Part shown: positions 5,485 to 60,174 of the stretch, piece by piece
Layout: each line of letters begins with the position of its first letter
Position numbering within the stretch: the stretch's first letter is position 1
From: Methanobacteriota archaeon
Lineage (GTDB): Archaea; Thermoplasmatota; DTKX01; VGTL01
Assembly (NCBI GenBank): GCA_016874675.1
Contig: VGTL01000003.1
Span: 11,346-75,345 of the forward strand
Length of the DNA stretch: 64,000 bases
Direction of reading: 5' to 3'
Notes under the pieces: generated by a model
What the model saw: the letters and a program-made list of their open reading frames with translations, nothing else
The model's database searches: none
Told to the model about the DNA's origin: nothing
Program-made: the position numbers and the translations under genes

Positions 5485-5665
5485 TTCGCCACTTTGTTAT
5501 TCAAGGCGCAAGGCGCAAGGCGCAGGGCGCAAGGGACGAGGGGGCAGGGGAAAAGGATCAAGGAACGAGGGTCAAGGGAGAAGGGGCAGGGGACAGGGGA
5601 TGAAGGACGGTTTCCATCGTCCCTGCGCCCTGCGCCCTGCGCCTTGACCTTTTCACGGCAAGGGT
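5485..5665. repeat. Composite palindrome: tandem GCGCAAGG / GGGCAGGG units, a spacer, then the complementary CCTGCGCC units.
   Basis: Read directly: ggcgcaaggcgcaaggcgcagggcgcaagg ... ccctgcgccctgcgccctgcgcc. Lies between the fsa 5' region and rpe. Confidence 0.7.
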
Positions 5666-6449: not shown

Positions 6450-6556
6450 CCCGGCTTAGCTCAGACTGGTGGAGCGGGGGACTGTAGTCGGTTCCCGGAG
6501 AGATCCGGTACCCCGCGGCAATCCTCAGGTCGCTGGTTCAAATCCGGCAGCCGGGA
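6450..6556 (+). tRNA. Intron-containing tRNA, probably tRNA-Tyr (anticodon GTA), with a roughly 34-nt intron after position 37.
   Basis: Acceptor stem CCCGGCT/AGCCGGG. D arm GCTC...GAGC. Anticodon stem GGGGA/TCCTC with loop CTGTAG|intron|A. T arm GCTGG-TTCAAAT-CCGGC. The intron contains a ccggagagatccgg hairpin. No encoded CCA. Confidence 0.6.
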
Positions 6557-6743: not shown

Positions 6744-7712
6744 ATGGGCCGCCTGGAAGGGCGATATCAGATGATCGATTTCGACGAGTTCGGCCCGGAG
6801 AAGATTCTCAACGTCTACGACCCGAAATCCGGAACGAGGGGGGTGGTCGTCATCGATAGTACGGCGCTCGGCCCCGGCAAGGGCGGCATCCGGATGACGC
6901 CCTCCGTCAACACGGGGGAGGTCGCCAAGCTGGCGCGCACCATGACCTGGAAGAACGCCCTGGCCGGGTTGCCCTTTGGCGGGGCGAAGTCGGGCATCAT
7001 TGCCGACGACAAGAAGATATCGGGGAAGAAGAAGTAAGAGATCGTAAGGGCCTTTTCCCGCGCGATCAGAATAATCTGCCCCGGGATGTACGTCGCCGCT
7101 CCGGACATGGCAATGGGCTCTCAGGAGATGCGCTGGTTCGCCGAGGCCAACGGGGACAGGCGCGCCTGCACCGGAAAACCCAAAGACCTTGGGGGCCTCC
7201 CGCACGAACTGGGAAGCACGGGCCTGGGTGTTTTTCAGGCCGCCCGGGTGGCCGCCCCCCATGCAGGCCTGAGGCTCGGCGATGCCACCGTCGCCGTCGA
7301 GGGGTTCGGCAACGTCGGTTTCTTCGCCGCCAGATTCCTGGCCGGGGCGGGTGCCAGGCTGGTCGCGGTGTCGGACAGCAAGGGTGTGGTCTGCAACGGC
7401 AACGGCATCGACTTCGAGAAGCTGGCCGAAGCCAAGGCGAGGACCGGCACTGTCGCGGGCTACGAGCCGGCGGACAAGACCTGCTGTGACAGTATTTTGG
7501 ATGTGAGATCGGACATCCTCGTAACCGCGGCCGTCCCGGACCTCGTCGGGCCGTCCGATGTCGGGCGGTTGCACTTCAAGCTCATCGTCGAGGGTTCCAA
7601 CACCCGGTCGGTGCTTGGGGATTCCAAAGGGCGCGGCCTGCCGCCGCGGCGGTGCGCCATGGACCTGGCGGTCAAACGCGTCCGGGAGCGGATGGGGAAG
7701 GAAGGCCCCTGA
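6744..7712 (+). pseudogene. Glu/Leu/Phe/Val dehydrogenase-like gene interrupted by an in-frame TAA (7035-7037) and C-terminally truncated.
   Basis: ORFs 6744-7037 and 7086-7712 are in the same frame. The read-through gives ...GGAKSGIIADDKKISGKKK*EIVRAFSRAIRIICPGMYVAAPDM..., a contiguous GDH N-terminal domain. GGIR, the catalytic Lys and the GFGNVG Rossmann motif are conserved. It ends about 100 aa short of a canonical GDH. Confidence 0.5.
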
Positions 7713-7808: not shown

Positions 7809-9269
7809 TCAGTCCTTCAGTATTCTCTCCACCTCGTCCGCGTCGGCGTCGATAACATACCTGAGCCCGCTTATCTCGGCCGCCTCGCGGGTCAGCGCCA
7901 CGAGGTCGTCGCGTGTCATGTGCTTGAGGGCGAACTTGCGGCTCCCGCACATGAGCTGGCGCAGGCCCTGTGCAATCCTCTCCAGGTAGGTGTACAGGCC
8001 GAATGCGCCGGTGGGCACGTCCTTGAACTTCGGACCGAGCTCGGCGGCAAGTTCGGGCGCTGTGACGAAGATCTCCTCCGGGGTGGTGCCAAAGCGCTTG
8101 ACGTACACCGGGACCTGGCCCTCCTTCATCTTCCGGCCCAGGGTCTTCCCGACCATCGCCGCCGCGAGCGGCCCGCGGGCCATGCCCACGAGCTTGAAAT
8201 AGGGCGCGCCGATGGCGAGCCCCTTGAACACCTGGTCCTCGAAGGCGAAGCCGCCGGCGACCGCTATTTCCGGGATGTACTTCTTCTCCCGGGCCAGCGA
8301 GGAGAACTTGACGGCCCGGGCCAGGTCCGCCGGGCGGTAGGCGCCGGTCTTGAGGAACACATACTTCGCGCCCATGTCCCGGAGCTCCTTGACCCTCTTG
8401 AGGAATCCCTCCTTGGTCACCATCCCGACGCGCGAGTGGCGCTCGAACTCCTTGAAGGAGCCGTTCTCGAAGGCCTTGATCACCTCCGGGTCCGCGGGGT
8501 CCGGGTGCACAACGTAGCCCCGGCTCTTGAGGAGCTGCTCGGCGACCGGGCTCACCGGGCATCCCGGGCCCTCCACCACGCACTTGGCCCGGACCGAGGG
8601 GGCGCTTTGCTCTTTGACGAGGCCGCCGGCACCGGTCAGCGCCAGGACATCGCAGTCCGTCTTGACGATGTCCTCGGGGTGGAGGCGCGCCGGCCCCCGG
8701 AAATGGGCCAGGGACTGCCTCTCGTTTGGCGCCCTGGAGTGCTTGAGCATCTTTGAGATGTCGAGGCCCTTGGGGTCCTGGACCCCGCCCCAGTCGTCGG
8801 TGACGGCCACTACGGTCGCTCCCTTGTGCACCAGGTAATTGACCAAGGCCGAACCGGTGATATCGAAACCCTGGACGGCCACCCGGACGCCGGCCAGATC
8901 GGAGGGGGCCGGTTTCGAGTGCCGGGAGGATTGCAGGTAGGTCTCGGCGACGAGCCCCATCCCGAAGCCCGCCACGCCCAGCTCATAGGGAATCCCGCCC
9001 ATCTCCGGGGGCTTGCCGGTGGCGCCCAGAAGGTCCCCGACCACGTGCGCGAAGGCTTTCATCTCCTCCTGGCCGGTGCCGAGGGTGAGGTTGTCGAGGA
9101 CCAGGATGCCCTGCATGCTCGCTTCCGGGTCATAGACCTGGAGGACCTCCACGGGGCCCCATTCGTCGAAGAAGGCGGAAACGTTGGTATCCTCCAGCAC
9201 CCGGAGCAGGGACTCGGGCCGGTAACCGCCAATGGGAGTCACATCGCCGCCTTGTGTCATAGGCATCAC
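7809..9269 (-). CDS. Fusion protein: degenerate Glu/Leu dehydrogenase-like N-terminal domain plus C-terminal part of a glutamate-synthase (GltB) FMN-domain-like TIM barrel.
   Basis: The N-terminal half is paralogous to the 6744-7712 gene, but GGIR/Lys/GxGxxG are degenerate. The C-terminal ...IAVAGGFAFEDQVFKGLAIGAPYFKLVGMA...GTTPEEIFVTAPELAAELG... resembles the GltB domain-2 C-terminal region. Confidence 0.5.
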   Translation of the reverse strand: MMPMTQGGDVTPIGGYRPESLLRVLEDTNVSAFFDEWGPVEVLQVYDPEASMQGILVLDNLTLGTGQEEMKAFAHVVGDLLGATGKPPEMGGIPYELGVAGFGMGLVAETYLQSSRHSKPAPSDLAGVRVAVQGFDITGSALVNYLVHKGATVVAVTDDWGGVQDPKGLDISKMLKHSRAPNERQSLAHFRGPARLHPEDIVKTDCDVLALTGAGGLVKEQSAPSVRAKCVVEGPGCPVSPVAEQLLKSRGYVVHPDPADPEVIKAFENGSFKEFERHSRVGMVTKEGFLKRVKELRDMGAKYVFLKTGAYRPADLARAVKFSSLAREKKYIPEIAVAGGFAFEDQVFKGLAIGAPYFKLVGMARGPLAAAMVGKTLGRKMKEGQVPVYVKRFGTTPEEIFVTAPELAAELGPKFKDVPTGAFGLYTYLERIAQGLRQLMCGSRKFALKHMTRDDLVALTREAAEISGLRYVIDADADEVERILKD

Positions 9270-10606: not shown

Positions 10607-12163
10607 ATGGCAGGCAGGATGGGGCTGGCGCTCCTCAGCGTGTGGGACAAGACGGGGGTAGTGGAGTTCGCCCGGGAGCTTTCGGCGATGGGGGCCGAGC
10701 TCGTATCGACCGGCGGGACGCTCAAGGCCCTGAAGGGGGCCGGCCTCGAGGTGCGCTCGGTGTCGGACCTCACGGGCTTCCCCGAGATTCTCGACGGCCG
10801 GGTCAAGACCCTGCACCCGGTGCTCCACAGCGGCATACTGGCCCGCCGGGACATCAGGGAGCACATGGACGAGCTCGACGGGCGGGGCATCCGGAAGGTG
10901 GACCTGGTCGCGGTGAACCTATACCCGTTCGAGGCGACCGTCAGCAAGCCCGGCTGCACGCTCGAGGAGGCGGTGGAGAACATAGACATAGGGGGGCCGT
11001 CGATGCTGCGCGCCGCCGCCAAGAACTACGAGGGGGTGGTGGTGGTCTGCAACCCGGCCCGCTACCCGCAGATAATCGAGGAGCTCAAGAAGGACGGCGA
11101 GGTCTCCCGTAGTACGCGCAAGCGGCTGGCGGCGGAGGTGTTCCGCCACACGGCCGCCTACGACGCCGCAATCTCGTCCCAGCTGCCCGGCATGATGGGC
11201 GTGGCCGAGCAGTTCCCGGACATCTTCACGGCCGGCGCCCGCAAGGCCCTGGACCTGCGCTACGGCGAGAACCCCCACCAGAAGGCCGCCTTCTACCGCG
11301 ACCCGTTCCGGAAGGAGCCCTGCGCCGCCTTCGGGGAGGTGCTCCACGGGAAGCTGCTCTCTTTCAACAACTACCTCGACCTGGACGCCGCCCTCGAGCT
11401 CGTCAAGGAGTTCGGGGAGCCGGCGGCCGTGCTCGTCAAGCACACGAGCCCCTGCGGCGTCGCAGTGCGGCCCGCAATATCGGCGGCCTACGAGGCGGCC
11501 CGCGCCGCCGACCCGAAGTCCGCCTTCGGAGGCGTGGTCGCCCTCAACCGGCGCTGCGACCGGGCCACCGCCGACCGGATCAACGCCACCTTCATCGAGG
11601 CGGTGGCGGCGCCCGACTTCGAGGACGATGCCCTGGAGGTGCTCCAGAGCAAGAAGAACGTGCGCCTGGTCCGGGTCGGGCCGCTGGAGGGCCTCCGGGA
11701 GCGCGACGAGCTCGACGTCCGGCGCGTCGTCGGCGGCTACCTCGTGCAGGACCGCGACCATGCGGTGCTCAAGGCCTCCGACCTCAAGGTCGTGACCAAG
11801 AAGAAGCCCTCCGAGAAGGAGATAGCCGACCTGCTCTTCGCCCGGCTGGTGGTCAAGCACGTGAAGTCCAACGCGCTGGTGTTCGCCAAGGACCTGACGA
11901 CCACGGGAATCGGGGCCGGCCAGCAAAGCCGCGTGGACGGGGTGGCAATCGCGGTCAAGAAGGGCGGCGACCGGATTCCCGGCAGCGTCATGGCATCGGA
12001 CGCCTTCTTCCCGTTCCGGGACGGCGTGGACGAGGCCGCGAAGGCCAGGGCGGTCGCCATCCTCCAGCCGGGGGGAAGCCTCCGCGACGCCGAGGCCATC
12101 GCGGCGGCGGACGAGCACGGCATCGCCATGGTGTTCTCGGGGCTGAGGAGCTTCAAGCATTAG
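10607..12163 (+). CDS. purH: Bifunctional AICAR transformylase / IMP cyclohydrolase.
   Basis: LLSVWDKTGVVEFARELSAMGAELVSTGGT...VKTLHPVLHSGILARRD... and the C-terminal AICARFT domain. Start taken at the internal ATG (ORF opens at 10553). Confidence 0.9.
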   Translation: MAGRMGLALLSVWDKTGVVEFARELSAMGAELVSTGGTLKALKGAGLEVRSVSDLTGFPEILDGRVKTLHPVLHSGILARRDIREHMDELDGRGIRKVDLVAVNLYPFEATVSKPGCTLEEAVENIDIGGPSMLRAAAKNYEGVVVVCNPARYPQIIEELKKDGEVSRSTRKRLAAEVFRHTAAYDAAISSQLPGMMGVAEQFPDIFTAGARKALDLRYGENPHQKAAFYRDPFRKEPCAAFGEVLHGKLLSFNNYLDLDAALELVKEFGEPAAVLVKHTSPCGVAVRPAISAAYEAARAADPKSAFGGVVALNRRCDRATADRINATFIEAVAAPDFEDDALEVLQSKKNVRLVRVGPLEGLRERDELDVRRVVGGYLVQDRDHAVLKASDLKVVTKKKPSEKEIADLLFARLVVKHVKSNALVFAKDLTTTGIGAGQQSRVDGVAIAVKKGGDRIPGSVMASDAFFPFRDGVDEAAKARAVAILQPGGSLRDAEAIAAADEHGIAMVFSGLRSFKH

Positions 12164-12335
12164 GGGGCAGCAGGCAGCGGGCAGCGGTGGGGCAGCGGGC
12201 AGCGGGCAGTGGTGGGGCATCGGGCAGCGGGCAGCGGCTGCAGGGGGGCGTCCGTCGTCCCCGCTGCCTGCTCCCCGATGCCCGATGCCCCCCTGCTGCC
12301 CGCTGCCTCTTCCCCCCACCGCAAAGTGCAAAAAT
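12164..12335. repeat. Composite palindrome: (GGGCAGCG)n ... spacer ... (CGCTGCCC)n.
   Basis: gggcagcgggcagcggtggggcagcgggcagcgggcag ... ctgcccgctgcctcttcc, immediately 3' of purH. Confidence 0.7.
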
Positions 12336-12984: not shown

Positions 12985-13165
12985 GGGAAAAGGCGCACCC
13001 GGAGGACCTTCGGTCCTCCTCGCCTCGGCGAGCATGGCTCGCCTTCGGAGGCGCAGGGCGCAAGGGTCATGGCGCGAGGGGAAAGGGGCCTGGGGGGCTG
13101 CGCTGTCCCCGCCACCCTTCCCCCTTGTCCCTTTTCCCTTGCGCCTTTCCCCTTGAGCCTTGCGC
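12985..13165. repeat. Composite palindrome with GCGCAGGG/GCGCAAGG units and a complementary C-rich arm.
   Basis: ggcgcagggcgcaagggtcatggcgcgagggg ... ccttgcgccctgcgccccgcgcc, 3' of purN. Confidence 0.6.
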
Positions 13166-13225
13166 CCTGCGCCCCGCGCCTTCCTCCTTGCTGGAAAAAG
13201 AGTTGAAATTCCTACTAGGAAGAGG

Positions 13226-13262
13226 AAAAAAATCTTCGACCCCGGGCCGGAGCCCGGGGTCT
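13226..13262 (-). terminator. Hairpin plus T-tract terminator 3' of the first surface-protein gene.
   Basis: Minus-strand reading gaccccgggctccggcccggggtcgaagatttttt: a GC hairpin followed by T6. Confidence 0.5.
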
Positions 13263-13270: not shown

Positions 13271-15106
13271 TCAGTTCTTCCTGCGCCGGACCAGCACCGC
13301 GACCGCGAGAATCGCCGCGACCAGTATCGCAACCTCGAAGCCCGGAGACGAGTACTGGAGCTCGCAGGTGGCCTGCTTGGTCATGTTTCCCGGGTCCGGG
13401 TTGGGCAGGCTGACGACCGAGGTTATGGTGTGCTTCCCGGCGCCCTTCACCTTGAAGGAGACCTTGACCTCCTTGGTTGAGAGCGGGTCGACGCTGACGG
13501 TCTGGTTGGCGAGCAGCTTGGCGCTCGCACCGGTGCCCTCCATCAGCATCAGCTGGACCGAGCCGGCCTTCTCCCCGATGTTCTTCAGCGTCACGGTGGC
13601 GGTGAAGGACTGGGAGCTGTCCTTGGGCTGGTTGTCCTTCTTTGCCGGGGATATCTTGAAGGACTGGATGCCGATGGCGGCATATATCTGGCGCGCCACG
13701 AAGACCGTGGAGTCCTTCTTCGACTCGACCCCGCCGACAATTGCCACTGCGGTGTAAGTCTGGTTGCCGTCGATGACTTCGTCGTTGAGGCTGATCCCCA
13801 GCGTCACCGTCTTGCTCTCGCCGATGCTGAGGTTGAACGGCTCGGTCACATTGGTGTATTCCCAGCCTCCCTGCCGAAGCTTCACCACGACGCCCGTGGC
13901 GTTGGCGGTGCCGTTGTTTTTCACCGAGATGGAGACCTCGACGAAGTCGTTGACGCGCTTGTCTGCGGGCATCGAGAACGAGGTTACCTCCAGCACGGGC
14001 ATCCTCTTTTTGACGGTCACATTGACCGTCATGTAGGTCGAAAGGAATAATCCCTCGCCATAGCCCGCCCGGATGGTCTTGGTCTCGCTTCCCCCCGTTA
14101 TCTCGGGCAGGACGTAGTCCCAGGTGGCGTTGACAGTCTCGCCCTCGGGGACTGTAACATTTGGCAACTCGCCCACGGGCATGTAGACCAGTATGACGAA
14201 CTCGGAGAAATCGATGGTGATATTGTCGGCGGCGGCGGTCCCGTCGTTCATCAACGTCACGGTGAAGGTGACGGTCTCGCCCTCGTATCCGGAGGCCGGG
14301 GAAACGGCAAGCCCGGTGATCGTGATGTTCGCCATCGGGCTGGTCAGGCTGATGTTCGTGCCGGCCATCACGGGGTCCATTTCCAGTATCTTGGCCCAGA
14401 CGGTGTGCTCGCCGTCGGCGAGCCCGAGCCCGCTGAAGTCGGTCTCCAGCGCGCTGTCCCCGCCCTCGCCCGCGGCAAGGGTTATGTCCCTTTCGCCGAG
14501 CATGACGTCCGCGTCCATGCCGAAGCTCACCGTGACGGTCCCGTCCAGGTTGCCGTCGTTCGTGAGGGAGGCCGTGATGGTGACGGTGTCGACGCCGATG
14601 AGCGCCTCGGAGGCGCTGAGCGCCACCGACTCGACCGTGAAGTCGCTGGCCATCGACCTGTAGTGGACGGTCACCACGGTCTGGTTTTCGGTCTCGGTGG
14701 CGTTCACGGCGGTCACCATGATCTCGTAGTCGCCGTAGGTCGGCGGGTACCACTGCCAGGTGTGCTCGGCAGGCTGGTCCGCGTCCAGGGCGCCCATGCT
14801 GACCGGATCCCCTTCCGGTGTGCCGTCCACGGAGAGCGTCAGAACAAGATCGGTCGCATTCTCCATCAGGGAGGCGATCGACACGGTGGCGGTGATGTTC
14901 ACCGGCTCCGTCTCCATCCACTCGGAGGAGTTGTCATGGCTTCCGTCCGGGTTCGTGAACTCCACGTCCACGGCAAATTGCTCCGCCCTGCCCGAAGCCG
15001 CGCCCGCCGGGGCCGCGACCGCAAGGACGCTCAGAAGAAATCCCAGCGTCACAAGCAGGGTCCCAATATTTCCGCTCTTTTTCATTTCGCTCACCCTCTT
15101 TTCCAC
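13271..15106 (-). CDS. Secreted surface (S-layer-like) glycoprotein with a signal peptide, CARDB-like beta-sandwich repeats, many N-glycosylation sequons and a PGF-CTERM archaeosortase sorting signal.
   Basis: N-terminus MKKSGNIGTLLVTLGFLLSVLAVAAPAGA. C-terminus ...SSPGFEVAILVAAILAVAVLVRRRKN (PGF-CTERM). Repeated ...NNGT...TV motifs. Confidence 0.7.
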   Translation of the reverse strand: MEKRVSEMKKSGNIGTLLVTLGFLLSVLAVAAPAGAASGRAEQFAVDVEFTNPDGSHDNSSEWMETEPVNITATVSIASLMENATDLVLTLSVDGTPEGDPVSMGALDADQPAEHTWQWYPPTYGDYEIMVTAVNATETENQTVVTVHYRSMASDFTVESVALSASEALIGVDTVTITASLTNDGNLDGTVTVSFGMDADVMLGERDITLAAGEGGDSALETDFSGLGLADGEHTVWAKILEMDPVMAGTNISLTSPMANITITGLAVSPASGYEGETVTFTVTLMNDGTAAADNITIDFSEFVILVYMPVGELPNVTVPEGETVNATWDYVLPEITGGSETKTIRAGYGEGLFLSTYMTVNVTVKKRMPVLEVTSFSMPADKRVNDFVEVSISVKNNGTANATGVVVKLRQGGWEYTNVTEPFNLSIGESKTVTLGISLNDEVIDGNQTYTAVAIVGGVESKKDSTVFVARQIYAAIGIQSFKISPAKKDNQPKDSSQSFTATVTLKNIGEKAGSVQLMLMEGTGASAKLLANQTVSVDPLSTKEVKVSFKVKGAGKHTITSVVSLPNPDPGNMTKQATCELQYSSPGFEVAILVAAILAVAVLVRRRKN

Positions 15107-15200
15107 ATACCCAATCGGACTTCTTACAACACCTAATATTCTATTATATCATATTTATAAGTATCGCGCGGACAAGCACCCTCGCATGGAGAGATTCATC
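15107..15200 (-). promoter_or_regulatory. AT-rich promoter region upstream of the 13271-15106 surface-protein gene.
   Basis: tattctattatatcatatttataagtatcgcgcg contains TATA-like boxes upstream of the minus-strand start. Confidence 0.4.
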
Positions 15201-15286
15201 AAACCCGGGTGGAATGGCAATGACCTGCGGAGGGCGGGCCGGGAGTGCTCCGATTCATTCGCGAGCGGTGCATGACATTAACACAA

Positions 15287-15325
15287 AAAAAATCAACGAC
15301 CCCGGGCTTTCGCCCGGGGCCGCAA
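15287..15325 (-). terminator. Hairpin plus T-tract terminator 3' of the second surface-protein gene.
   Basis: Plus strand aaaaaaaatcaacgaccccgggctttcgcccggggccg. On the minus strand this is a hairpin followed by T8. Confidence 0.5.
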
Positions 15326-15331
15326 ATCCGC

Positions 15332-17095
15332 TCAGTCCTTCCTGCGCCTGATCAGCAGCGCGGCCACGAATATGGCCGCCACCAGGAACAGCACCTCGAA
15401 GCCGGGCGTGTATTCCAGAATGCACTTGGCCGTCTTGGTGGAGCCCGCCGGGTCGGCCTCGGAGCCGGTCAGCGTCGCCGTGGCGGTGTGGCCGCCGGAG
15501 CCCTTGACCTTCCAGGTGTAGGTCTTGGTCACGGTGCTGTTGCCCCCGAGCGTGATGGCCTCGGTGGCTATGTTCTTGGTGCCCTCCTTGATGGTCAGGG
15601 TGCAGTTGGTCGTCGCGAGCTCGCCGGTGTTGCTCAGCACCACGGTCAGGGTGTAGCTCTGGGTGCTGTCCTTGGGCTGGCCGTCCTTCTTGGTCGGCTT
15701 GACCGAGAAGGTGGTTATGGCCACCTTGGCCGGGATGGGCACGTGGGCGACCTTCTTCGTGACGTTCATCTCGGCGCCCATCGCCTTCGCGAAGAACTTG
15801 TGGTCGACGTCGGCCGGCGCGATCATCGTGACCTTGAGGGTCACGGTCGTGGTGTTGCCGGCCGGAAGGTCGAAGGCCGTGGAGTTGGCGAGCTTGGTGG
15901 TCCCGTCGTAGAACTCGACCACGACGCCCGTCGCGTCGCCGGTGCCGTTGTTCTTGATGACGGCGGTGAAGTCGACCATGTCGCCGACCTTCAGGCCGTC
16001 GGGCACCGTGAACGAGGTTATCTGTATCTGGGGCAGCTTGGCCTTGACGGTCACGTTCGCCATCGCCTCGGAGGTTCCGACCATCGCCTTGAGGTTCTTC
16101 ACGGTGTCGGCCGCGACGTCGGGCAATGTCCACTGGAACGTCACATCCTTGGTCTCGCCCATCGGGACGGTCACGTTGGTGACGTTGCCCAACTTGTTCG
16201 AGCCCTCGTAGAAGTCGACCACCAGCTCGGGGGAGTCGGCGGTCCCGGTGTTGTTGAGGGTGGCCTTGAGGGTCACCGTCGCGCCCTCGTAGGCGGAGGC
16301 CGGGTCGACCGTCAGCGTGTCGACCGCCACGTCAGCCATCGGGGTGGCCAGCGTTATGTTCGGATCCGCCCTCGCCTCGGTGTAGCCCCAGTCTTGGACC
16401 ATGGCCCTTATGGAGTGCTCGCCGTCGGCGAGGTCGAACCCGCCGAAGTCGGTGTCCAGGGCGATGTCGCCGCCCTCGCCGGAGGCGAGGGTTATGTCCT
16501 TCTCGCCGAGCCGGACGTCCGCGTCCGCGACGAACATGACCGTGGCGGTCCCGTCCATGTTGCCGTTGTTCACGAGGGAGGCCGTGATGGTGACGGTGTC
16601 GACGCCGATGAGCGCCTCGGAGGCGCTGAGGGAGACGGACTCCACGACGATGTCGCTGGCCAGGAAGGTGTATTCCTCGGTCACCACCGTCTGGTTCTCG
16701 ACCTCGGTGGCGTTGACGGCCGCCACCATGACCACGAATTCGCCGTACGCCATCGGGTGCCACTGCCAGGTGTAATCGACGGACTCGCCCTCGTTGAGGG
16801 CTCCGATGCTGACCGGGTCGCCCTCCATGTCTCCGTTGATGGTGAGCTCCAGCATCAGGTCGGTCACGTTCTCCATCATGGCGACAAGGGACACTGTGGC
16901 GGTGATGTTCACCGGCTCCGTCGCCATCCACACCGAGGAGTTGTCATGGCTCCCGTCGGGGTTGGTGAACTCCACGGTCACTGCGAAGTGCTCCGCCCTG
17001 CCAGCAGCGGCGCCCGCAGGGGCGACGACCGCAAGGACGCTCAGAAGAAATCCCAGCGTCATAAGCAGGGTTCCAATCTTCCCGTTCTTTTTCAT
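15332..17095 (-). CDS. Paralogous PGF-CTERM surface glycoprotein.
   Basis: MKKNGKIGTLLMTLGFLLSVLAVVAPAGA...PGFEVLFLVAAIFVAALLIRRRKD. Same architecture as 13271-15106. Confidence 0.7.
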   Translation of the reverse strand: MKKNGKIGTLLMTLGFLLSVLAVVAPAGAAAGRAEHFAVTVEFTNPDGSHDNSSVWMATEPVNITATVSLVAMMENVTDLMLELTINGDMEGDPVSIGALNEGESVDYTWQWHPMAYGEFVVMVAAVNATEVENQTVVTEEYTFLASDIVVESVSLSASEALIGVDTVTITASLVNNGNMDGTATVMFVADADVRLGEKDITLASGEGGDIALDTDFGGFDLADGEHSIRAMVQDWGYTEARADPNITLATPMADVAVDTLTVDPASAYEGATVTLKATLNNTGTADSPELVVDFYEGSNKLGNVTNVTVPMGETKDVTFQWTLPDVAADTVKNLKAMVGTSEAMANVTVKAKLPQIQITSFTVPDGLKVGDMVDFTAVIKNNGTGDATGVVVEFYDGTTKLANSTAFDLPAGNTTTVTLKVTMIAPADVDHKFFAKAMGAEMNVTKKVAHVPIPAKVAITTFSVKPTKKDGQPKDSTQSYTLTVVLSNTGELATTNCTLTIKEGTKNIATEAITLGGNSTVTKTYTWKVKGSGGHTATATLTGSEADPAGSTKTAKCILEYTPGFEVLFLVAAIFVAALLIRRRKD

Positions 17096-17226
17096 TATCT
17101 ATCACCTTTCTTCTTTGTTTTTCCTATCCGTTTTCATACCATATGAAATATCTTCACATTATATATATGTAGTGTTCAATGAAATTCTTCGGGGGCCGAA
17201 TCCCCGGCGCCCGGCGACGGCTCCCC

Positions 17227-18978
17227 TCATCCGGTACTCCTCCGGAATAGCAGGGCGGCGACGACGATCGCCCCGACCAAGAGCAAGACCTCGAAGCCGG
17301 GGGTGTACTCCAAAGTGCACCTTGCGGTCTTGGTGGACGCCGCCGGGTCGGCCTCGGAGCCCGTCAGGGCCGCCGTGGCGGTGTGGCCGCCGGCACCCTT
17401 CACCTTCCAGGTGTAGGTCTTGGTCAGGTTGCCGCCGCCCTCGAGGGCGATGTTCTCGGAGGCGACGACCCGGGCGCCCTCCCTGATGGTCAGCGTGCAG
17501 TTGGCCGACTTGACCTCCCCGGAGTTTTGCATGACCGCGGTCAGGGTGTAGCTCTGGGTGCTGTCTTGGGGCTGGTTCTCGCGCCTGGACGGGCTGACGG
17601 TGAAGGAGGAGATGGCCACCCTGGCCGGGACCGGGGTGTGGGCGACGTTTTTGGTCAGGTTCAGCTCGGCGCCCCCGGCCCTCGCGATGAAGGTGTGCAG
17701 GGCGTCCGGGGTCCCGGAGAGCCTCACGGGCAGCGAGACGGCCTTGCTCGAGCCGACCGATAGGTTGAACGGCCCCGAGCCGGCCAGCCGGGTCGCGCCG
17801 TCGAAGAACTCCACCACGACCCCGGTGGCGTCTCCGGTGCCGTTGTTCCTGACCGTGGCGGTGAAATTGACCTCGTCTCCGATCCGGAGGCCGTCCGGGA
17901 CGGTGAAGGACGAAAGGAGTATCCGGGCCAATCTCGCCAGGACGGTGACGTTCACGGAGGCCGAGGAGGCCCCCAGGCTCGCAGTCACCGTGAGGTTGGT
18001 GTCGGCGGCGACGTCGGGCAGCGACCAGACGAAGATGACGGGCCGGGTCTGGCCCATGCCGACGCTGATGTTGTGCACGAGGCCCAGAACGCCGGACCCG
18101 TCGGAGAACTCCACGGTCTGGTCGGGGGCGTTGGCCGTGCCGCTGTTGTTTATCAGGGCGGTCAGGGTGATGTTGGCGCCCTCGAGACCCGAGCCGTCGG
18201 AGGCGGTGAGGCTCTCCACCGCCAGCCTCGCCGCCGGGTTGGTGAGGGTGATGTTCTCCGTGGAGGCGGCCTCGCTGTACCGCCAGTCGGTCAGGCTGGC
18301 ACCGATGACGTGCTCGCCGTCGGTCAGGTCGTACCCCGAAAAGTCGGTGACAAGGACGGCGTTGGCGGCGCCTCCCTCCGGGACGTCTTGGTCCACCGTG
18401 GCGAGCGGGGTGCCGTCGATGCAGAATGTCACGCCCGCCGTCCCGGGCGCGTTGCCGGCGTTGGCCAGCGCTGCCGAGAGCGTCACCTCGTCCACGCCGA
18501 TGAGGGCCGTGTAGGCGGACGCCTCGACCGACCGGACGGTGATGTCGCTGCCCAGGGCCTTGAAGTGCTGCGTCGAGACCGTCTGGCCGGCGGCGTCGGT
18601 GCCGTTGATGGCGGTCACGACCACCAGGTGGTCTCCGTACACGACAGGGGTCCACTGGAAGGTATGCTCCCGGAACTCGCCCTCGTTGAGGGCCCCCACG
18701 GGCGCTTCGGCCTGGACCCCGCCGGAGTCGATGTCCAGCACGAGCTTGAGGTCCGTCACGTTCTCCATGCCGGCGGGGACGCTCACGTTGACCGTGATGT
18801 TGACCTGCGAGCCGGCATCGGAGACGTTGGAGGTCGCGCCGGTCGCGTCCATGAATTTCACTGAAAGCTCGAAGTTGCCCGCCCTGCCCGGGGCTGCGCC
18901 GGCCGGCGCCACCAGGACTCCCGCCAGTAGGCCCAGCGCCAGAAGCAGGGTCAATCCCTTGTTCCGGTTACACATCAT
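17227..18978 (-). CDS. Third paralogous PGF-CTERM surface glycoprotein.
   Basis: MMCNRNKGLTLLLALGLLAGVLVAPAGA...PGFEVLLLVGAIVVAALLFRRSTG. Start at the internal MM. An AT-rich promoter lies at roughly 19100-19160. Confidence 0.65.
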   Translation of the reverse strand: MMCNRNKGLTLLLALGLLAGVLVAPAGAAPGRAGNFELSVKFMDATGATSNVSDAGSQVNITVNVSVPAGMENVTDLKLVLDIDSGGVQAEAPVGALNEGEFREHTFQWTPVVYGDHLVVVTAINGTDAAGQTVSTQHFKALGSDITVRSVEASAYTALIGVDEVTLSAALANAGNAPGTAGVTFCIDGTPLATVDQDVPEGGAANAVLVTDFSGYDLTDGEHVIGASLTDWRYSEAASTENITLTNPAARLAVESLTASDGSGLEGANITLTALINNSGTANAPDQTVEFSDGSGVLGLVHNISVGMGQTRPVIFVWSLPDVAADTNLTVTASLGASSASVNVTVLARLARILLSSFTVPDGLRIGDEVNFTATVRNNGTGDATGVVVEFFDGATRLAGSGPFNLSVGSSKAVSLPVRLSGTPDALHTFIARAGGAELNLTKNVAHTPVPARVAISSFTVSPSRRENQPQDSTQSYTLTAVMQNSGEVKSANCTLTIREGARVVASENIALEGGGNLTKTYTWKVKGAGGHTATAALTGSEADPAASTKTARCTLEYTPGFEVLLLVGAIVVAALLFRRSTG

Positions 18979-20807: not shown

Positions 20808-20935
20808 AAAGGGGCAAGGCGCAGGGCGCAAGGGGTGAAGGCGCAGGGCGCAAGGACCTTGCGCCTTGACCCATGAGCCTTGCGCCTTGCGCCCTGCGCC
20901 CTGCGCCTTCCCTCATTCCCTTCGCAGGCTCAGCT
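20805..20935. repeat. Composite palindrome (GCGCAGGG/GCGCAAGG ... CCTTGCGCC/CCCTGCGCC).
   Basis: ggcaaggcgcagggcgcaaggggtgaaggcgcagggcgcaagg ... ccttgcgccttgcgccctgcgccctgcgcc. Confidence 0.65.
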
Positions 20936-22554: not shown

Positions 22555-22690
22555 TGAAGGCGGCAATGCAGGATGGCAGAAAGGCAGGAAGGGAGGCAGA
22601 ATGGCAGGACGGCAGAACGGGGATTGGTCTTTGGTCCCCTCCTGCCTTGCTGCCTTGCTGCCTTGCTGCCTTGCCGCCCATCGATTAAAA
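22555..22690. repeat. Composite palindrome with GGCAGGA/GGCAGAA units and complementary CTGCCTTG units.
   Basis: gcaggatggcagaaaggcaggaagggaggcagaatggcaggacggcag ... cctgccttgctgccttgctgccttgctgccttgcc. Confidence 0.7.
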
Positions 22691-23214: not shown

Positions 23215-23405
23215 TATGAGGCGCAAGGCGCAAGGCGCAGGGCGCAGGGCGCAGGGGGCGAAGGCGCAAGATGGAAGGATCAAGGGAACGACCGCTGATT
23301 CCTCCCTTGTCCCTCGCGCCTCATCCCTCGCGCCTTCAGCCTTGCGCCTCGCGCCTTCAGCCTTGCGCCTCGCGCCCTGCGCCCTGCGCCTTCCCGAAGA
23401 AGTAT
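23215..23405. repeat. Composite palindrome (GGCGCAAGG/GGCGCAGGG ... CCTTGCGCC/CCTCGCGCC).
   Basis: ggcgcaaggcgcaaggcgcagggcgcagggcgcaggg ... cttgcgcctcgcgccttcagccttgcgcctcgcgccctgcgccctgcgcc. Confidence 0.7.
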
Positions 23406-26039: not shown

Positions 26040-26160
26040 GACGCGGGAAGGGCAGCGGGCAGTGGGCAGCGGCGGACGACGGGCTCCGCGTCGTCACCGC
26101 TCCCTGCTGCCCGCTGCCCGCTGCCTTTCCCCCCCGCTGCCTGCTGCCTTGCTGCCTCGT
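26040..26160. repeat. Composite palindrome (GGGCAGCG/GGGCAGTG ... CTGCCCGCTGCC).
   Basis: gggcagcgggcagtgggcagcggcggacgacgggctccgcgtcgtcaccgctccctgctgcccgctgcccgctgcc. Confidence 0.7.
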
Positions 26161-29421: not shown

Positions 29422-30342
29422 ATGGCGCGCCGCAGGTTGAAGGGCAGTGGTGGCGCCCGGGCCGCTGCCGGCCGGCTGCCGCGCCCGTCCGGGGGCGGGC
29501 GCGCCGGTCCGGCGGCCCCGGGGCGGGCACCGGCAGCCGGGCCACCAGTCCTTCGGGCCGGCCACGTCGACGCCGACCGGTTCGAGCGCTCAAAGCGCGT
29601 GGGCTGGTTCGACTTCGAAAGGATACGGAAGGAGAGGGTGCTGGTGGTCGGGGCGGGGGCCCTGGGGAACGAGGTGGTCAAGAACCTCGTGCTCTCGGGC
29701 TACCGCCGGATATCCCTCGTGGACATGGACCGCGTGGTCTACTCGAACCTGAACCGGTGCGTCTTCTTCTCGGAGGAGGACTCCCGCCGGAAGAGGCTCA
29801 AGGCCGAGGTCGTGGCGAGCAAGGCCGGGCTCCTGGACCGCGAGGCCCGGATAGTACCGTACGACCATCGCATAGAGGAGCTCCCGGACGGTTTCTTCGG
29901 CGACCACGACCTCGTGCTCGGCTGCCTCGACAACATCGCCGCCCGGCTCCACATCAACGCCCGCACCTACCCGCGCCTCATTCCGTACGTGGACGGGGCC
30001 ACGCTCGGCACGGTGGGCAAGGTCCAGGTGGTGCTCCCGCCCGAGACGCCCTGCCTGGAGTGCGGGATGAACCGCACCCACATGAAGGTGCTCGAGAAGC
30101 GCTGGAGCTGCACCGGCCGGGACGTGACCTTCTTCGACCCCAAGCTCGCCGCCGAGATAACCACCACGAGCGTCATCGCGGCGGTCCAGGTGCGCGAGGC
30201 CCTCAAGCTGACCAGCCGCCGGCATGAAAGCTGCATCCGGCACATGTTCTACTACGACGCCACGAGGAACGTTTGCGATGTCCTGCAGGTCGACCTGAAC
30301 CCCAGATGCCCCCACCACGGGGCCCCGGAGGCCGTGGAATGA
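29422..30342 (+). CDS. E1-like ubiquitin/SAMP-activating enzyme (ThiF/MoeB/UBA family).
   Basis: Rossmann motif VLVVGAGALGNEVVKNLVLSGYRRISLVDMDRVVYSNLNRCVFF. CxxC zinc motif (ETPCLECG, later RCPHHG). A disordered Gly/Arg-rich N-terminal extension. The stop overlaps the next gene's ATG (ATGA). Confidence 0.75.
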   Translation: MARRRLKGSGGARAAAGRLPRPSGGGRAGPAAPGRAPAAGPPVLRAGHVDADRFERSKRVGWFDFERIRKERVLVVGAGALGNEVVKNLVLSGYRRISLVDMDRVVYSNLNRCVFFSEEDSRRKRLKAEVVASKAGLLDREARIVPYDHRIEELPDGFFGDHDLVLGCLDNIAARLHINARTYPRLIPYVDGATLGTVGKVQVVLPPETPCLECGMNRTHMKVLEKRWSCTGRDVTFFDPKLAAEITTTSVIAAVQVREALKLTSRRHESCIRHMFYYDATRNVCDVLQVDLNPRCPHHGAPEAVE

Positions 30343-33300
30343 AGGGCCGGTTCGACGCGCTCAAGTACGCCAAATCGCTCGAAAAGCAGCTGAGCGCCGA
30401 CCCGCGCAAGAAGAGGCTCCAAGACGACGTCGCCCGGCTCCAGTCCCGGCTCGCCGACGAGGGCAGGAAGGGCGCCGACGTCTCCGGCCTGGAGAGGCTG
30501 CTCTCGGACGCCTCCTCGGCCGTGGAGGGCGGCGACCTCGGCCTGGCCGAGGAGCTCGTCTCCAGGGCGGAGAAGGGGCTATCGGGGCTGGGGGCGCTCT
30601 CTGTCGAGGAGGCCATCGCTCGGGCGCGCCGGGCGGCCGAGGACGTCGGGATGCTGGGCCTCGACAACGTCCGGGCGCTGGAGCTGATAGGGCAGGCGGA
30701 GGACGCCATCCGAAAGAAAGACCACAGGTCCGCCCGGAAGCTGGCCGTCGCATCGCAAAAGGAGGCGGAAACGGCCCTGGAGGGATCGGTCCAGGACGCC
30801 CTGCCCTATGCCGAGGGCCTCGTCTCGGAGTGCGAGAGGTGCGGGATGGACGTATCGGGACTGCGGGGGAGGCTCTCCGCCGTCCGGGAGCTTTTGGGAA
30901 AGCGGGAGTACAACGCCGCCCTGCAGGAGTGCACCACGCTCGTCGAGGACATCGAGCCCGCCCGGAAGTCCTTCTTCCGCGAGCGCCTCGCCCGGGCGGG
31001 CGAATCCGTCGAGCGCGCCCGGGAGGGGGGCCGGGATGTCTCCGCGCTCGAGGGCTCCCTGGCCCGCGCCCGCAGGCTGCTCGACCTCAAGGACTTCGAG
31101 GGGGCCTGCGAGGCCCTCGGAGAGGTCGAGGCGGCCACAGGCGCGGCGGCGGCCCCGGCCGGCCCGCCGGGACCCGGCCCGGAGGCCCCCCCGGACGAGG
31201 TGGAGGAGGCCTCCGGGGTGCTCTCGGAGCTCAGGTCGGCCATCGCGGCCGGGACCAAGATGGGTCTTGACCTCAAGGCCGAAACGGCCAGGGTGCCCGA
31301 GGTCGAGGGCCTGTTGAAGGCCGGTGACGGCCGGGGCGCCGCCGCCGTCGGGCGGCAGGTGCTGGCGAAGGTGCGCGAGCGCCAGAAGGCCCTCTCCGGG
31401 AGCGCCATAGCGTCGCTCGAGGATGAGGTGGCCCGGCTCCGCAAGGGGGGCGCCTCGGTGGCCCCCGCGCAGAAGGTCCTCGAGCAGGCCTCCGAGAGGC
31501 TGCGGGCCGGCTCCCACGAGGAGGCGTTCGCCCTGGCCCGCCGGGCGGTCGACGAGCTCGACGCCCTCCGGGAAGGGATGGCCGGCTACGCGGAGGCGAT
31601 GTCCCGGTGCAAGGGCCTGCTCAAGGACGCCGCTGGGAGCCGGCTGGACTGCACGCTCGCCGAGCCCCTGGTCGAGGAGGCCCGGGCGGCCGCGGCCCGG
31701 GGCGAGTACCTCGCCGCTGCCGGGAAGCTCGCCGAGGCCCTCGGGTTGCTCGAGGACGCGATGGCCGGCCGGGCCGCCGGCGGCCTCCGGCGGGCGCTGG
31801 AGCTGGTCTCCCGCGCCGACGAGGAGGGGACGGACCTCGAGGACGTCGAGAGGCTGGCGCTCGACGGGCTGGCATTCGAGGAATCCGGGGAGGGCGGGCG
31901 GCTGGGCGAGGTGGCCGCCACCATCGAGCGGCTGGCGGGCTCGCGGGCCCGCTCATCGATGATGGCCCGGGACGCCCTCGACCGGGCCGGCGAGACGATG
32001 GCCGAGGCGATGATGGAGATGCTGGACGTCTCCGACGAGACCCGCAAGGTGGGGCTGGCCGGGGAGGCCCTGCAGAGGGGGGAGTACGAGGACGCCCGGT
32101 TCCTCGCGGAGGACGTCGCCCCGGCCCTCCGCCAGCGGTGCCGCGAGGCCCTGGACCAGTCCATATCGAAGGCGGCCTCGATGGTGGAGGAGCTGGGCCA
32201 GTCCGGGGCCGAGATGCCCCGGGCGCGGGAGTACCTCCGCAGGTCGCGCGAGCTCGCCGAGTGCGGCCGTTTCGGGCTGGGGCACTCCTACGCGCTGCAG
32301 GCGGTCCAGGAGGCCCGCGCGGTCGGCGACCGCTTCCGGGAGGCCCAGGACGCCCGCGCCGCCGTGGAGGCCATGCTCGAGAGCGCGACGGCGCTGGGGG
32401 TGCCCCGGGAGGATTTGGAGGCCGCCCTGTCGGAGGTCAGCTCGGCCATCGAGGTTCGCGCCTACGAGAGGGCAGTGGCGGCCGGGGCGGCCGGACTGGA
32501 GCGGGGCGAGGAGCGCTTCGCCCGGGAGGCCCGCGCCCTGGAGGCGGGCCTCTCCGAGCTCCTGTCGTCGCTTCGCAAGCTGCCCATCGATGGCTCGGCC
32601 GGGGCGGCGGCCCTCAAGGCCGCCCGGGGCCACCTGGGGAAGGCGGAGCACGCCGAGGCCATATCGGCGCTCAGGGGGCCGACCGAGAGCCTGTCGAGGG
32701 CGAGGCGGCAGTACGAGGATTCAGCGGCCGCGCTGGAGGCTGCGCTGGCGCGTCTGTCGGAGGCCGAGGGATACGGCCTGGACGTCTCCGAGATCAGGCC
32801 TGACCTCGAGGCCGCCTCCCGTGCCCATTCCTCCGGCGCCTACGACGAGGGATTCCGGCTTGCGCGCACCGCCCTGGAGCTGGGGGAGCACCTGATCTCC
32901 GAGAGGGCCGCGCAGGCGATGGGGGAGCTCCGGGACCTCCTGGAGTCCACCGAGCGGGCCGGCACCGTCCTCGACGACCTGCACGAGCGCGTCGGGGCGC
33001 TCTCCGGGTGCTTCTCGTCCAAGGCGTTCGGGGGGCTCTTCAAGGAGGCGGTGGCCATACGCGCCGAGATAGGGAGGCGCCGGGCGCGCCACTCCGAGGC
33101 GGTCACGGCCATCCAGGGCATCCAGGCCGCCATCGAGGAGGTCAAGGCGATGGGCGCGGACCTCAGCCCGACCGAGGACCTCCTGGGATTGGCGCGGTTC
33201 GCCTCCGAGCGGGGCTCCTATGACGATGTGCTGGACTACTCCCGGCGGGCGCAGTCGGAGCTCACCGCCGCCGCCGGATCGAGCGTGGACAGGCAGCGGG

Positions 33301-39824: not shown

Positions 39825-39864
39825 GGGAATGCGGGCACGGGGCGGAGCGAGGGGGCCGAGCCGC

Positions 39865-39905
39865 TACATGCCAGGGACAAAAAGTAAATATAAGGAAATG
39901 CGAAT
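39865..39905 (+). promoter_or_regulatory. AT-rich promoter-like element upstream of the Ub-like gene.
   Basis: caaaaagtaaatataaggaaatgcgaatatgg, a TATA-like taaatataagg in GC-rich context. An aggggt RBS-like sequence precedes the ATG at 39981. Confidence 0.4.
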
Positions 39906-39980
39906 ATGGTTGCCGTAAAGGGTACAAAGCGGAGGTTTTGACGGACTACGGCCTTGCTCGGCTGCGGGAAAGGGGTATTG

Positions 39981-40223: not shown

Positions 40224-40390
40224 GAGCCCCCTTGGCCGTCGCGCTGGGCCGGGGGAGGGGAGAGGGAACCGGGGTGCTGGGTCGGACCGGGACGGGCCGG
40301 TCCCGTGAAGGGGGGGTGTGAGGAACGCCGCTTCCCAAGGAGATACTTCGAAGGAGGCTCCAGAACGAGATAGCCCAGGTCCGCCGCAAG

Positions 40391-40873: not shown

Positions 40874-40916
40874 GCCCAACGGCCGAAGCGTCCGCGACAT
40901 CGGGGGTGCAGTAGGC

Positions 40917-41858: not shown

Positions 41859-41859
41859 A

Positions 41860-56988: not shown

Positions 56989-56994
56989 CTACGT

Positions 56995-60173: not shown

Positions 60174-60174
60174 T

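Follow-up and report, generated by a model that had tools for sequence, protein, structure and literature searches.

A family of G-rich/C-rich tandem-array hairpins in the intergenic regions of a high-GC archaeon

A 64,000-nt stretch of the genome of a Methanobacteriota archaeon (GTDB lineage Archaea; Thermoplasmatota; DTKX01; VGTL01; assembly GCA_016874675.1, contig VGTL01000003.1, positions 11,346 to 75,345 of the forward strand; hereafter the window) carries a family of composite repeat elements, in which a tandem array of short G-rich units is followed by a spacer and by an array of complementary C-rich units. The elements had been noticed at 15 loci in an initial annotation made from the sequence alone, and the analysis described here shows these loci to be a real family of one architecture, able to form hairpins of 45–180 nt. 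We interpret the elements, with moderate confidence, as dispersed, fast-evolving and slippage-grown palindromic simple-sequence elements resembling REP (repetitive extragenic palindromic) sequences and REPINs (REP doublets forming hairpins), i.e. as an archaeal counterpart of the inverted heptameric simple sequence repeat (SSR) pairs of Xanthomonas. An origin by dispersal plus slippage is reasonably supported.

The pattern was recovered in three ways, using Tandem Repeats Finder, an inverted-repeat finder and an explicit array grammar (period 7 or 8, at least three copies, at least 85% self-identity and no 1–3-nt periodicity). The grammar returned 24 tandem arrays in the window (883 nt in all), 21 of period 7 and three of period 8. 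The corresponding chance expectation, determined from 100 dinucleotide-preserving shuffles of the window, was a mean of 0.61 and a maximum of 4, so that the observed count is 40-fold in excess and the pattern lies far beyond chance. The same grammar found no arrays of periods 9–12 in the window. Tandem Repeats Finder placed an array at every one of the 15 annotated loci, and the inverted-repeat finder paired most arrays with a complementary array 4–105 nt away. The claim of one architecture at all 15 loci consequently stands as far as the arrays are concerned, but the full composite is present at 12 of them and a single arm at the remaining three. The list was also incomplete, as a single array at 48553–48580 and a composite with a 26-nt unit at 41859–42001 had been overlooked. 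The number of units per array varies from 2 to 11 across loci, and at least eight different unit types (7- and 8-mers) are present in the one genome. The commonest, GGCGCAR (GGCGCAA/GGCGCAG), is common to six loci in 64 kb and GGGCAGC to three, while a GCA core recurs in many units. An Rfam scan of the window gave a tRNA as its single match and no family for the elements, and a literature search for the unit sequences found no paper containing them in the library searched.

The genome has a GC content of 68%, and contigs often break at element loci, several metagenome contigs ending exactly at elements (48095, 50851 and 51742); a compositional or assembly artefact of high GC was considered, the former being what the annotation had named as overturning the pattern. 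The probability of such an artefact is negligible. The excess over shuffles, the specificity for period 7 and the 38-fold higher density in intergenic regions (IGRs) than in coding sequence rule out a compositional cause, and the array sequences are identical between the independent JGI and Logan assemblies, showing that the elements were not created during assembly.

The elements are as follows, where no strand is assigned unless one is given; contigs used for comparison carry L-numbers.

12163–12317: composite, the locus originally reported; it starts 1 nt past the purH stop and ends about 50 nt short of purN, whose promoter/start is at 12366. About ten GGGCAGC-type units, arranged as a 25-nt higher-order repeat, form the G arm, GGGGGGCGTCCGTCGTCCCC the apex and GCTGCCC/GATGCCC units the C arm; RNA minimum free energy −120 kcal/mol, z −5.2.

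5497–5650: composite with five GGCGCAR and four CCCTGCG units and an interior rich in G/A; it separates the promoters of tal and rpe, which are divergent.

12985–13181: nested small palindromic modules (12985–13048), then a composite (13049–13181) with GGCGCAR units outside and GGGGAAA-type units inside, in a convergent IGR downstream of the purN stop.

20809–20911: composite, GGCGCAR / YTGCGCC, z −7.9; it exactly occupies the space separating the bacA stop (20807) from the convergent stop of a gene of 109 aa (20913).

22555–22680: composite of 8-mers, GGCAGNAN / CTGCCTTG, between the divergent TATA boxes of the gene for the proteasome-activating nucleotidase (PAN) and an HTH_3 gene.

23217–23394: composite upstream of the MMPL TATA box that overlaps the stop codon of HTH_3; its G arm consists of GGCGCAR units, and the C arm has a 21-nt higher-order repeat without a mirror in the G arm.

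26045–26157: composite, GGGCAGC / GCTGCCC, 8 nt past the MMPL stop and immediately ahead of the PKD-gene TATA box, z −9.4; additional GCTGCCT(T) units follow the hairpin, and the core GGACGACGGGnnCCGCnTCGTCACCGCTCCC and termini GGGAAGGG/CCTTTCCC are those of a dispersed subfamily.

41859–42001: related architecture with a 26-nt unit, ATCGGTTAGGGGGACGTGTTGTTCAT, in tandem, a spacer and the complement, between the convergent JAB and isocitrate/isopropylmalate dehydrogenase genes, z −7.1.

48005–48127: composite of CCGGGKG / CMCCCGG units, in frame inside kae1.

48553–48580, + strand: single G-rich array of four GGCGCAW units within the N-terminal coding sequence of Bud32.

50840–50894, + strand: single G-rich array of seven CAGGGGG units without a C arm, in a Gly/Arg-rich N-terminal extension of the PNP gene.

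51715–51833: composite that represents the second copy of the 26045 subfamily, with additional CCCCTTG/CCCGTGA units after it; the element occupies the gap between the convergent PNP and adenosine-kinase stops.

56989–57046: C-rich arrays only (three CGTCCCC and five CCCGGCA units), occupying the 56-nt gap between convergent stops; the G-rich partner is merely weak and is located within the upstream ORF.

57812–57863: single array, C arm only, six CCCTTGCA units, G-rich on the minus strand, directly upstream of or overlapping the DUF167 start.

60174–60252: composite of GGGGWGC units, 1 nt past the AMMECR1 stop.

61189–61233: small composite of two GGCGCAR units and their complement, 10 nt past the DsrE stop.

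61228–61290: dispersed palindromic module beginning CCGTAGACGACCGGCC, following the preceding composite.

62420–62558: composite of 8-mers, GGCAGSAA / CTTGCTGC, downstream of the stop of a TrpRS/TyrRS-type synthetase and flanked by inverted AT-rich boxes, z −7.0.

Every composite folds into one long stem-loop (minimum free energy −30 to −120 kcal/mol, z −3.7 to −9.4 relative to dinucleotide shuffles). Likewise, every composite presents the arms in the order G-rich arm, spacer, C-rich arm, an order which reads alike on both strands, and the reverse was never observed. With the strict grammar, six composites from the window, 15 from metagenomes and one from a virus were ordered G to C and none C to G (21:0, p = 1e-6), and a count by eye gave at least 30:0. 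Ordinary perfect hairpins outside the elements showed no such preference, with counts for the two orders of 5 vs 5 in the window and of 6 vs 9 in relatives, and the G-first bias is thus specific to the array elements. Equal unit numbers in the two arms, as originally described, are rarely seen. Rather, the arms are usually unequal, measuring for example 27 and 64 nt in kae1, and 69 and 90 nt at 23217. The relationship between the arms was further studied by permuting the 7–8-nt blocks of one arm and realigning it to its partner (11 loci, 1000 permutations). The mirroring was strong at one of the 11 loci (purH–purN, 2/1000), marginal at four (32–66/1000) and absent at six, and a strict upkeep of the palindrome by template switching or by selection for perfect pairing was rejected on this basis. 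Higher-order repeats of 21–25 nt are moreover restricted to one arm. In combination with the weak mirroring and an indel in the population that affects one arm only (see below), this reveals the arms to be largely independent arrays of complementary units. G·U pairs were equally common on both folded strands (14 sense vs 12 antisense, at tandem or ORF loci), giving no sign of selection on a particular RNA.

The formation of G-quadruplexes (G4) on the G-rich strand, raised in the annotation as an alternative fold, fails as a common denominator. A switch between G4 and hairpin has been proposed for the putative quadruplex sequences (PQS) with C tracts of Methanomicrobiaceae, and control of transcription or replication via a G4 on the G-rich arm would be the corresponding explanation here. 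The GGGCAGC, CAGGGGG and CCGGGKG arrays do satisfy the G3N1-7 x4 motif, the G-rich tract precedes its 3′ C-rich complement in the same order as in the Methanomicrobiaceae (PMC8044849), and heptameric G-rich SSRs form G4 in vitro (PMC4692102). Still, we regard this explanation as very unlikely. The canonical motif is found, on either strand, at only about half of the composite loci, the GGCGCAR and the 8-mer GGCAGNAA units contain GG runs only, four units are not preferred, and the long complementary arm should out-compete a G4. Consequently, complementarity rather than G4 potential is the property that the elements share.

A gene map was built from JGI calls and Pfam matches, with orientation classes covering IGRs of at least 50 nt. 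Although IGRs constitute 8.3% of the annotated span, 19 of the 24 arrays are intergenic (p = 9e-17). Arrays make up 13.4% of the intergenic and 0.35% of the coding nucleotides, and the whole elements account for about 32% of the intergenic DNA. An element is present in 5 of 7 convergent, about 4 of 7 divergent and 5 of 17 tandem IGRs, where the difference between convergent and tandem regions is not significant (p = 0.085). In tandem and convergent spacers the elements abut the stop codon (0–10 nt, about ten loci), and those in tandem spacers stop short of the following gene's TATA box; in the divergent tal–rpe and PAN–HTH spacers the element lies precisely in the interval that separates the two conserved promoter boxes. 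Many elements have AT-rich TATA-like boxes at their flanks. The proximity to a stop codon (within about 10 nt) that was ascribed to most copies is accordingly found at about 10 of 16 loci, but four are situated at divergent starts or 5′ ends and three inside ORFs.

The turnover of the elements was studied both within the population and among relatives. Contigs from three samples were 99.7–100% identical to the window, and one of these (L003) contained one additional 25-nt higher-order unit, only in the G arm of 12163–12317. No indel polymorphism was observed in five other contig pairs. In a separate observation on L003, a 1-nt deletion in a G run at about 2890 (window about 5279) splits the transaldolase gene, either through a sequencing or assembly error or as a population frameshift.

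The neighbouring genes include those for SRP19, ribosomal protein S8e and PAN, which identify the host as an archaeon, and the best named homologues of PAN and Kae1 are assigned to 'Thermoplasmata archaeon'. By exact protein matches the window belongs to contigs from Lake Tanganyika metagenomes (JGI 3300020083/84/603). A PAN scan of GTDB genomes matched only an actinomycete and a clostridial AAA protein, and relatives were retrieved from metagenomes through PAN and Kae1. L006 (95% PAN identity, 66.7% GC) carries arrays of other units (GTGAACC, GGGTGGAA and CAGGGTG), and L008/L016 (93% identity, 63% GC) a few arrays. With the grammar, no arrays were detected in L017 (88% Kae1 identity, 64.6% GC), nor in about 63 kb of L010, L011 and L012 (77–90% identity, 52–57% GC). 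The differences are clearly visible at orthologous sites. The purH–purN spacer increases in length from 56 nt in L010 to 92 nt in L008, 160 nt in L006 and 202 nt in the window; L010 has no hairpin, L008 a two-unit GGGTTCA hairpin, L006 a hairpin of four GTGAACC units and the window its GGGCAGC units, while the window and all compared relatives have kept the downstream box ACCGCAAAGTGCAAAAATC. Conservation of the apex of this spacer between the window and L006 was marginal (45/1000). Similarly, both TATA boxes of the PAN–HTH spacer are kept, and between them are GGCAGNAA units in the window, a hairpin of GGGTGGAA units in L006, a short hairpin in L008 and nothing in L010. L006 lacks the tal–rpe element (5497–5650) in its orthologous IGR, with both promoter boxes retained. 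The MMPL–PKD, kae1 and PNP–adenosine kinase elements are missing in L006 or L017, and the element at 12985–13181 is absent in L006, L008 and L010. The stops of PNP and adenosine kinase lie 1 nt apart in L017, compared with the 123-nt element in the window; conversely, L017 has a hairpin element between the convergent Ham1 and 324-aa genes, starting from a native CGGGC, where the window has 15 nt. Elements are thus gained, lost and rebuilt within a few per cent of protein divergence, since orthologous spacers at 88–95% protein identity hold other units or nothing, the presence/absence comparison that the annotation had called for. Concerning the 26-nt-unit hairpin, a related copy is found at L017 3919–4123, and in L016 the JAB and dehydrogenase genes overlap instead.

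The dispersal of copies is directly visible for one subfamily. Besides the unit, the elements at 26045 and 51715 have the unique spacer GGACGACGGGnnCCGCnTCGTCACCGCTCCC in common (90% over 39 nt, E 3.6e-7), as well as their termini, GGGAAGGG and CCTTCCC; a third copy is present on L036 and a diverged copy on L046, from the same lake. In the approximately 100 kb of the lineage that was sampled, this GGGCAGC/GGGGAGC subfamily comprises at least 3–4 dispersed copies with a common spacer and common termini, and the purH–purN locus has a GGACGACGG apex in inverted orientation. L036, L040 and L046, all from the same lake lineage, carry the same element families. Together with the 25-nt polymorphism, the higher-order repeats and the differences in unit and presence among relatives, these copies with a common unique spacer support the active generating process that had been suspected. 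Two attempts at a broader signature were abandoned. A 'GGACG' apex was only about 2-fold enriched (8 of 197 sites in 2.2% of the sequence) and holds only for the GGGCAGC subfamily, and a covariance model of the 26045 subfamily recovered all composites but was too generic to tell subfamilies apart.

Two families of small dispersed palindromic modules (beginning GCACCCGGAGGACCTTCGGTCCTCC and CCGTAGACGACCGGCC) are nested in or beside the GGCGCA arrays. The module at 12995–13050 recurs on L040 (1047–1082, 97% over 36 nt) and that at 61228–61290 on L006, L016 and L048; small modules were located at L006 9108–9130, L016 11188–11205 and L017 12240–12300.

A miniature inverted-repeat transposable element, one of the generating mechanisms suggested in the annotation, is not supported in its classical form, since no target-site duplication was found in comparisons of empty and filled sites at purH–purN, PAN–HTH, kae1 and PNP–adenosine kinase. 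An IS5-like ORF on L036 merely adjoins an element and common ends were not shown, and no conserved GTAG-type 5′ tetranucleotide was identified.

The generating process is not limited to spacers, as copies occur in frame in three coding sequences, those of Kae1, Bud32 and PNP. The kae1 element (48005–48127) encodes about 43 extra residues in a surface loop and splits the Pfam TsaD match, query residues ~182–228 are without a counterpart in Pyrococcus abyssi Kae1 (2IVN), and the closest homologues (88–90% identity) are proteins of 328 aa without the insertion. The in-ORF copy pointed out previously is thereby verified as a true in-frame insertion, and the empty site in L017 reads ...GAGAACACGGCC|GGCTACCTG... 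around the junction. Further relatives have 6–38 extra residues at the same loop. In L016 10480–10600 a different insertion of about 38 aa is found there (L008 lineage, P0137), which was tried as a second hairpin element and rejected (z = +0.1 vs shuffles). As this insertion differs and folds no better than shuffles, the loop is a general insertion hotspot in the clade. In Bud32 the array at 48553–48580 takes the place of part of the N-terminus of the L017 orthologue, the reading frame being kept because three heptamers amount to 21 nt. In PNP no start codon is found between the array at 50840–50894 and the conserved RQYHIAL motif. Selection evidently removes copies except at tolerated sites.

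Our preferred reading of these results, dispersal plus slippage, can be formulated in three steps. In a first step copies would spread to new sites without target-site duplication, as is observed for one subfamily and would apply to the rest, and would survive only in dispensable sequence, that is between a stop and a promoter, between convergent stops, between divergent TATA boxes or, rarely, in frame in tolerant loops and N-termini. In a second step the arms would expand and contract largely independently, either by slippage during replication or by unequal exchange of blocks of one or more units, as shown by the one polymorphism and the higher-order repeats, and unit variants, arm lengths and unit types would turn over within the divergence of close relatives. 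Finally, persistence would reflect mutational drive in a high-GC lineage and tolerance to insertion rather than an essential function. The most probable molecular effect of the elements would be the formation of a very stable stem-loop in read-through transcripts or of a DNA cruciform, which may act as a leaky, oligo-T-independent barrier or 3′-end protector for transcription from either side.

A number of observations weigh against this reading. No RAYT (REP-associated tyrosine transposase)/IS200-type (Y1/HUH) or other transposase was found among the Pfam matches of the window and the relatives' contigs. The internal segment common to the GGCGCAR loci is short and not significant by BLAST, so that dispersal with a common core is seen in only one subfamily. 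The C-arm unit CCGGCAC of kae1 resembles the native flank CCGGCTACC, which fits seeding in situ better than insertion. The strict G-then-C order is not predicted by a purely neutral model and hints at a functional or mechanistic constraint. Finally, runs of five or more T were found at 0 of about 12 element-bearing gene ends and at 5 of 22 other gene ends, although this difference is not significant (p = 0.14).

Some seeding in situ is plausible, given the resemblance of the kae1 unit to its flank and the two-unit 'proto-hairpins' of L008. In its pure form this explanation holds that GC-rich palindromes at gene boundaries seed slippage on both arms, with independent loci and no mobility. The empty kae1 site of L017 indeed has the palindrome GCCGGC, and the last C-arm unit in the window merges into the native CCGGCTACC; the Ham1 element of L017 begins from its native CGGGC, the L008 proto-hairpins are situated where the window and L006 have long arrays, and the arms evolve independently. 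Conversely, the sharing of GGCGCAR by six loci and of GGGCAGC by three within 64 kb, the non-repetitive spacers and termini common to several copies, and the filling of a gap that is 1 nt in L017 would not be expected from independent origins. We therefore consider a purely local origin improbable.

The second process to be weighed is transcription termination. The initial annotation regarded the elements as probable transcript 3′-end or terminator structures, but as a general account this is not supported, given the approximately 4 of 7 divergent IGRs with an element upstream of both TATA boxes and the three translated arrays. None of the approximately 12 element-bearing gene ends has the oligo-T tract used in archaeal termination, and the G·U pairs show no strand bias. 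In a modified form of this account, the elements would be dedicated bidirectional terminators or insulators in a genome where oligo-T is scarce (68% GC). A polymerase coming from either side would transcribe the G-rich arm before its complement, and the nascent hairpin, or an R-loop/G4 on the G-rich non-template strand, would stop the polymerase or protect the 3′ end. The frequent start within 10 nt of a stop codon and the elements in 5 of 7 convergent IGRs are in line with this, as is the lack of T5 runs at element-bearing 3′ ends. The G-first order appears the same from both sides, is exclusive, in contrast to the balance of ordinary hairpins, and matches the strand rule of the Xanthomonas repeats (PMC4692102), and some orthologous IGRs retain a hairpin with a different unit. 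Of the 3′ ends mapped in Haloferax volcanii, 503 are preceded by hairpins, and at the one hairpin that was tested 59% of transcripts terminated, with read-through (PMC7237163). However, the elements are also found upstream of both promoters in divergent IGRs, in 5′ regions and inside essential ORFs, they are patchy among close relatives and absent from the lower-GC ones, and neither the G·U pairs (no sense-strand excess) nor the T-run contrast lends significant weight. A further point against a dedicated role is found at 13235–13262, downstream of a CARDB gene and purN, where a CCCCGGGCCGGAGCCCGGGG hairpin flanked by an A7 run and a T7 run resembles a bidirectional intrinsic terminator. This hairpin-plus-T7 is conserved in L006 and L008, whereas the adjacent array element is not. 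In combination, these data make dedicated terminators or insulators rather unlikely. A role as leaky hairpin-terminator, barrier or insulator is possible and compatible with all data, the in-ORF copies included, and a leaky barrier would give the polarity a meaning, since the G arm is transcribed first from either side.

Alternatively, the arrays could be clustered binding sites for a protein that recognises DNA or RNA, for instance a regulator, a chromatin protein or a nuclease specific for hairpins, in which case the palindrome would reflect binding as a dimer. The fixed polarity of the asymmetric units, the recurrent GCA core and the proximity to promoters speak for this. The units, however, differ between loci and between orthologous sites, turnover is rapid, periods of 7–8 do not fit the helical repeat of DNA, and no candidate protein was identified, all of which renders this proposal hard to credit.

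The architecture extends beyond the lineage. The pattern GGCGCARGGCGCARGGCGCARGG was found on more than 116 metagenome contigs from many environments, where the matches on L031 and L090 are eukaryotic telomere-like repeats and irrelevant. Twelve metagenome contigs carry GGCGCAR composites of the same polarity, and at least three of these are bacterial, with an element abutting a stop codon in each case: L018 1783–1974 (frr, ribosome recycling factor), L120 786–925 (bacterial-type LeuRS) and L088 9181–9359 (PepP). L018 and L120 share the junction CAAGAGGAGC. A viral origin was considered, but no evidence for it was obtained, as the GGCGCAR/GGGCAGC arrays on 57 viral contigs are almost all single arrays. 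Three observations are left unexplained by a purely neutral model: the strict polarity, the recurrence of this unit and architecture on contigs from bacteria, and the lack of T-tracts where genes end at an element. A speculative and improbable extension would be a cross-domain class of G-arm-first hairpins, acting as bidirectional oligo-T-independent barriers or insulators in high-GC genomes and propagated, perhaps rebuilt unit by unit, by a putative hairpin-recognising enzyme.

If our preferred reading is correct, self-expanding palindromic simple-sequence DNA of recent origin makes up about one third of the intergenic sequence in this uncultured lineage, and the elements constitute an archaeal record of a class of repeats whose characterisation has until now been confined to a few bacteria, namely Xanthomonas, heterocystous cyanobacteria and proteobacteria with REPINs. 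Such repeats would also remodel essential proteins in frame (the loop of about 43 aa in Kae1; the N-termini of Bud32 and PNP) and would account for metagenome contigs breaking at gene boundaries in these organisms. The G-then-C polarity in two domains would provide a testable handle for distinguishing a transcription stop from a by-product of element formation.

Additional features of the window were observed in the course of the analysis. The tRNA at 6450–6556 spans 107 nt, compared with a model of 71 positions, which suggests an intron. A glutamate-dehydrogenase paralogue is split into two ORFs at 6744–7712 and 7809–9260 (ELFV_dehydrog_N and ELFV_dehydrog), possibly as a pseudogene, and adjoins an intact convergent glutamate-dehydrogenase gene. 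Three tandem paralogues of CARDB-domain surface proteins are located at 13271–18978 with 75–82% nucleotide identity across 660–700 nt, and their number varies, with one in L006 and three in L008. A eukaryote-like ubiquitin operon at 29455–41858 encodes ThiF/E1, a 3183-aa Prok-RING_1 protein, a ubiquitin/YukD-like small protein, UQ_con (E2) and a JAB deubiquitinase, and is conserved in L006, L008 and L017.

Among known systems, the termination hairpins of Haloferax volcanii (PMC7237163) are likewise GC-rich stem-loops at gene ends in a high-GC archaeon. Unlike these hairpins and bacterial intrinsic terminators, the elements have no U-tract, are 5–10 times longer than terminator stems and also occur upstream of promoters and in ORFs. 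The recurrent PQS of Methanomicrobiaceae are intergenic, with 50% in tail-to-tail, 39% in tandem and 11% in head-to-head regions (PMC8044849). As in the window, an archaeal G-rich motif has a C-rich tract of partial complementarity located 3′ of it, with hairpin, triplex and G4 as alternatives. However, the PQS represent a single conserved motif of about 30 nt with a C tract of 10–12 nt (C3TC3-type) in a different archaeal class, whereas the window elements have variable units and a full complementary C arm of 20–90 nt.

REP sequences, BIMEs (bacterial interspersed mosaic elements) and REPINs, the last defined in PMC3337134, are mobilised by RAYT transposases (PMC3337134, PMC3116915), and REP-like palindromes scale with GC content in bacteria and archaea (PMC12306157). 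The window elements share with them a size of about 80–180 nt, two inverted arms and a spacer forming one hairpin, a fixed arm order, several families per genome, the lack of target-site duplication, mosaic loci and an implied number of hundreds of intergenic copies. They differ from REPINs, which have been described in bacteria, in that the arms are slippage-prone tandem arrays rather than single REP palindromes of 20–30 nt, with no GTAG-type tetranucleotide identified and no RAYT gene seen in the window or the relatives' contigs.

Several families of intergenic tandem heptamers per genome, with variable copy number, are also known from cyanobacteria such as Calothrix and Nostoc, in the form of the STRR (short tandemly repeated repetitive sequences) with repeats of the type GGGGA(C/T)T. 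These heptamer arrays host small inserted dispersed repeats, which the nested modules of the window resemble. The cyanobacterial arrays differ from the window elements in being AT-richer and in having bacterial hosts. A further difference is that inverted heptamer pairs are rare in Nostoc (PMC4692102).

In Xanthomonas, each genome contains 70–75 convergent inverted pairs of GGGAATC arrays, which are intergenic and within 50 bp of stops (Rehm et al. 2015, PMC4692102). Their length varies between related genomes while the repeat type is preserved, and their G-rich strand coincides with the sense strand where they follow a stop, but with the antisense strand where they precede an ORF (PMC4692102). 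In contrast to these pairs of one unit, the window elements have an archaeal host and at least eight unit types, many of which lack GGG runs, with no preference for the four units of the quadruplex criterion. Mosaic loci with nested modules and higher-order repeats, a subfamily with a unique common spacer and in-frame copies in proteins are further differences. Still, both consist of intergenic G-rich tandem heptamers near stops, with a fixed G-then-C order, stem-loop formation and variable length, and the Xanthomonas inverted heptameric SSR pairs (PMC4692102) are the closest described relatives of the archaeal elements.

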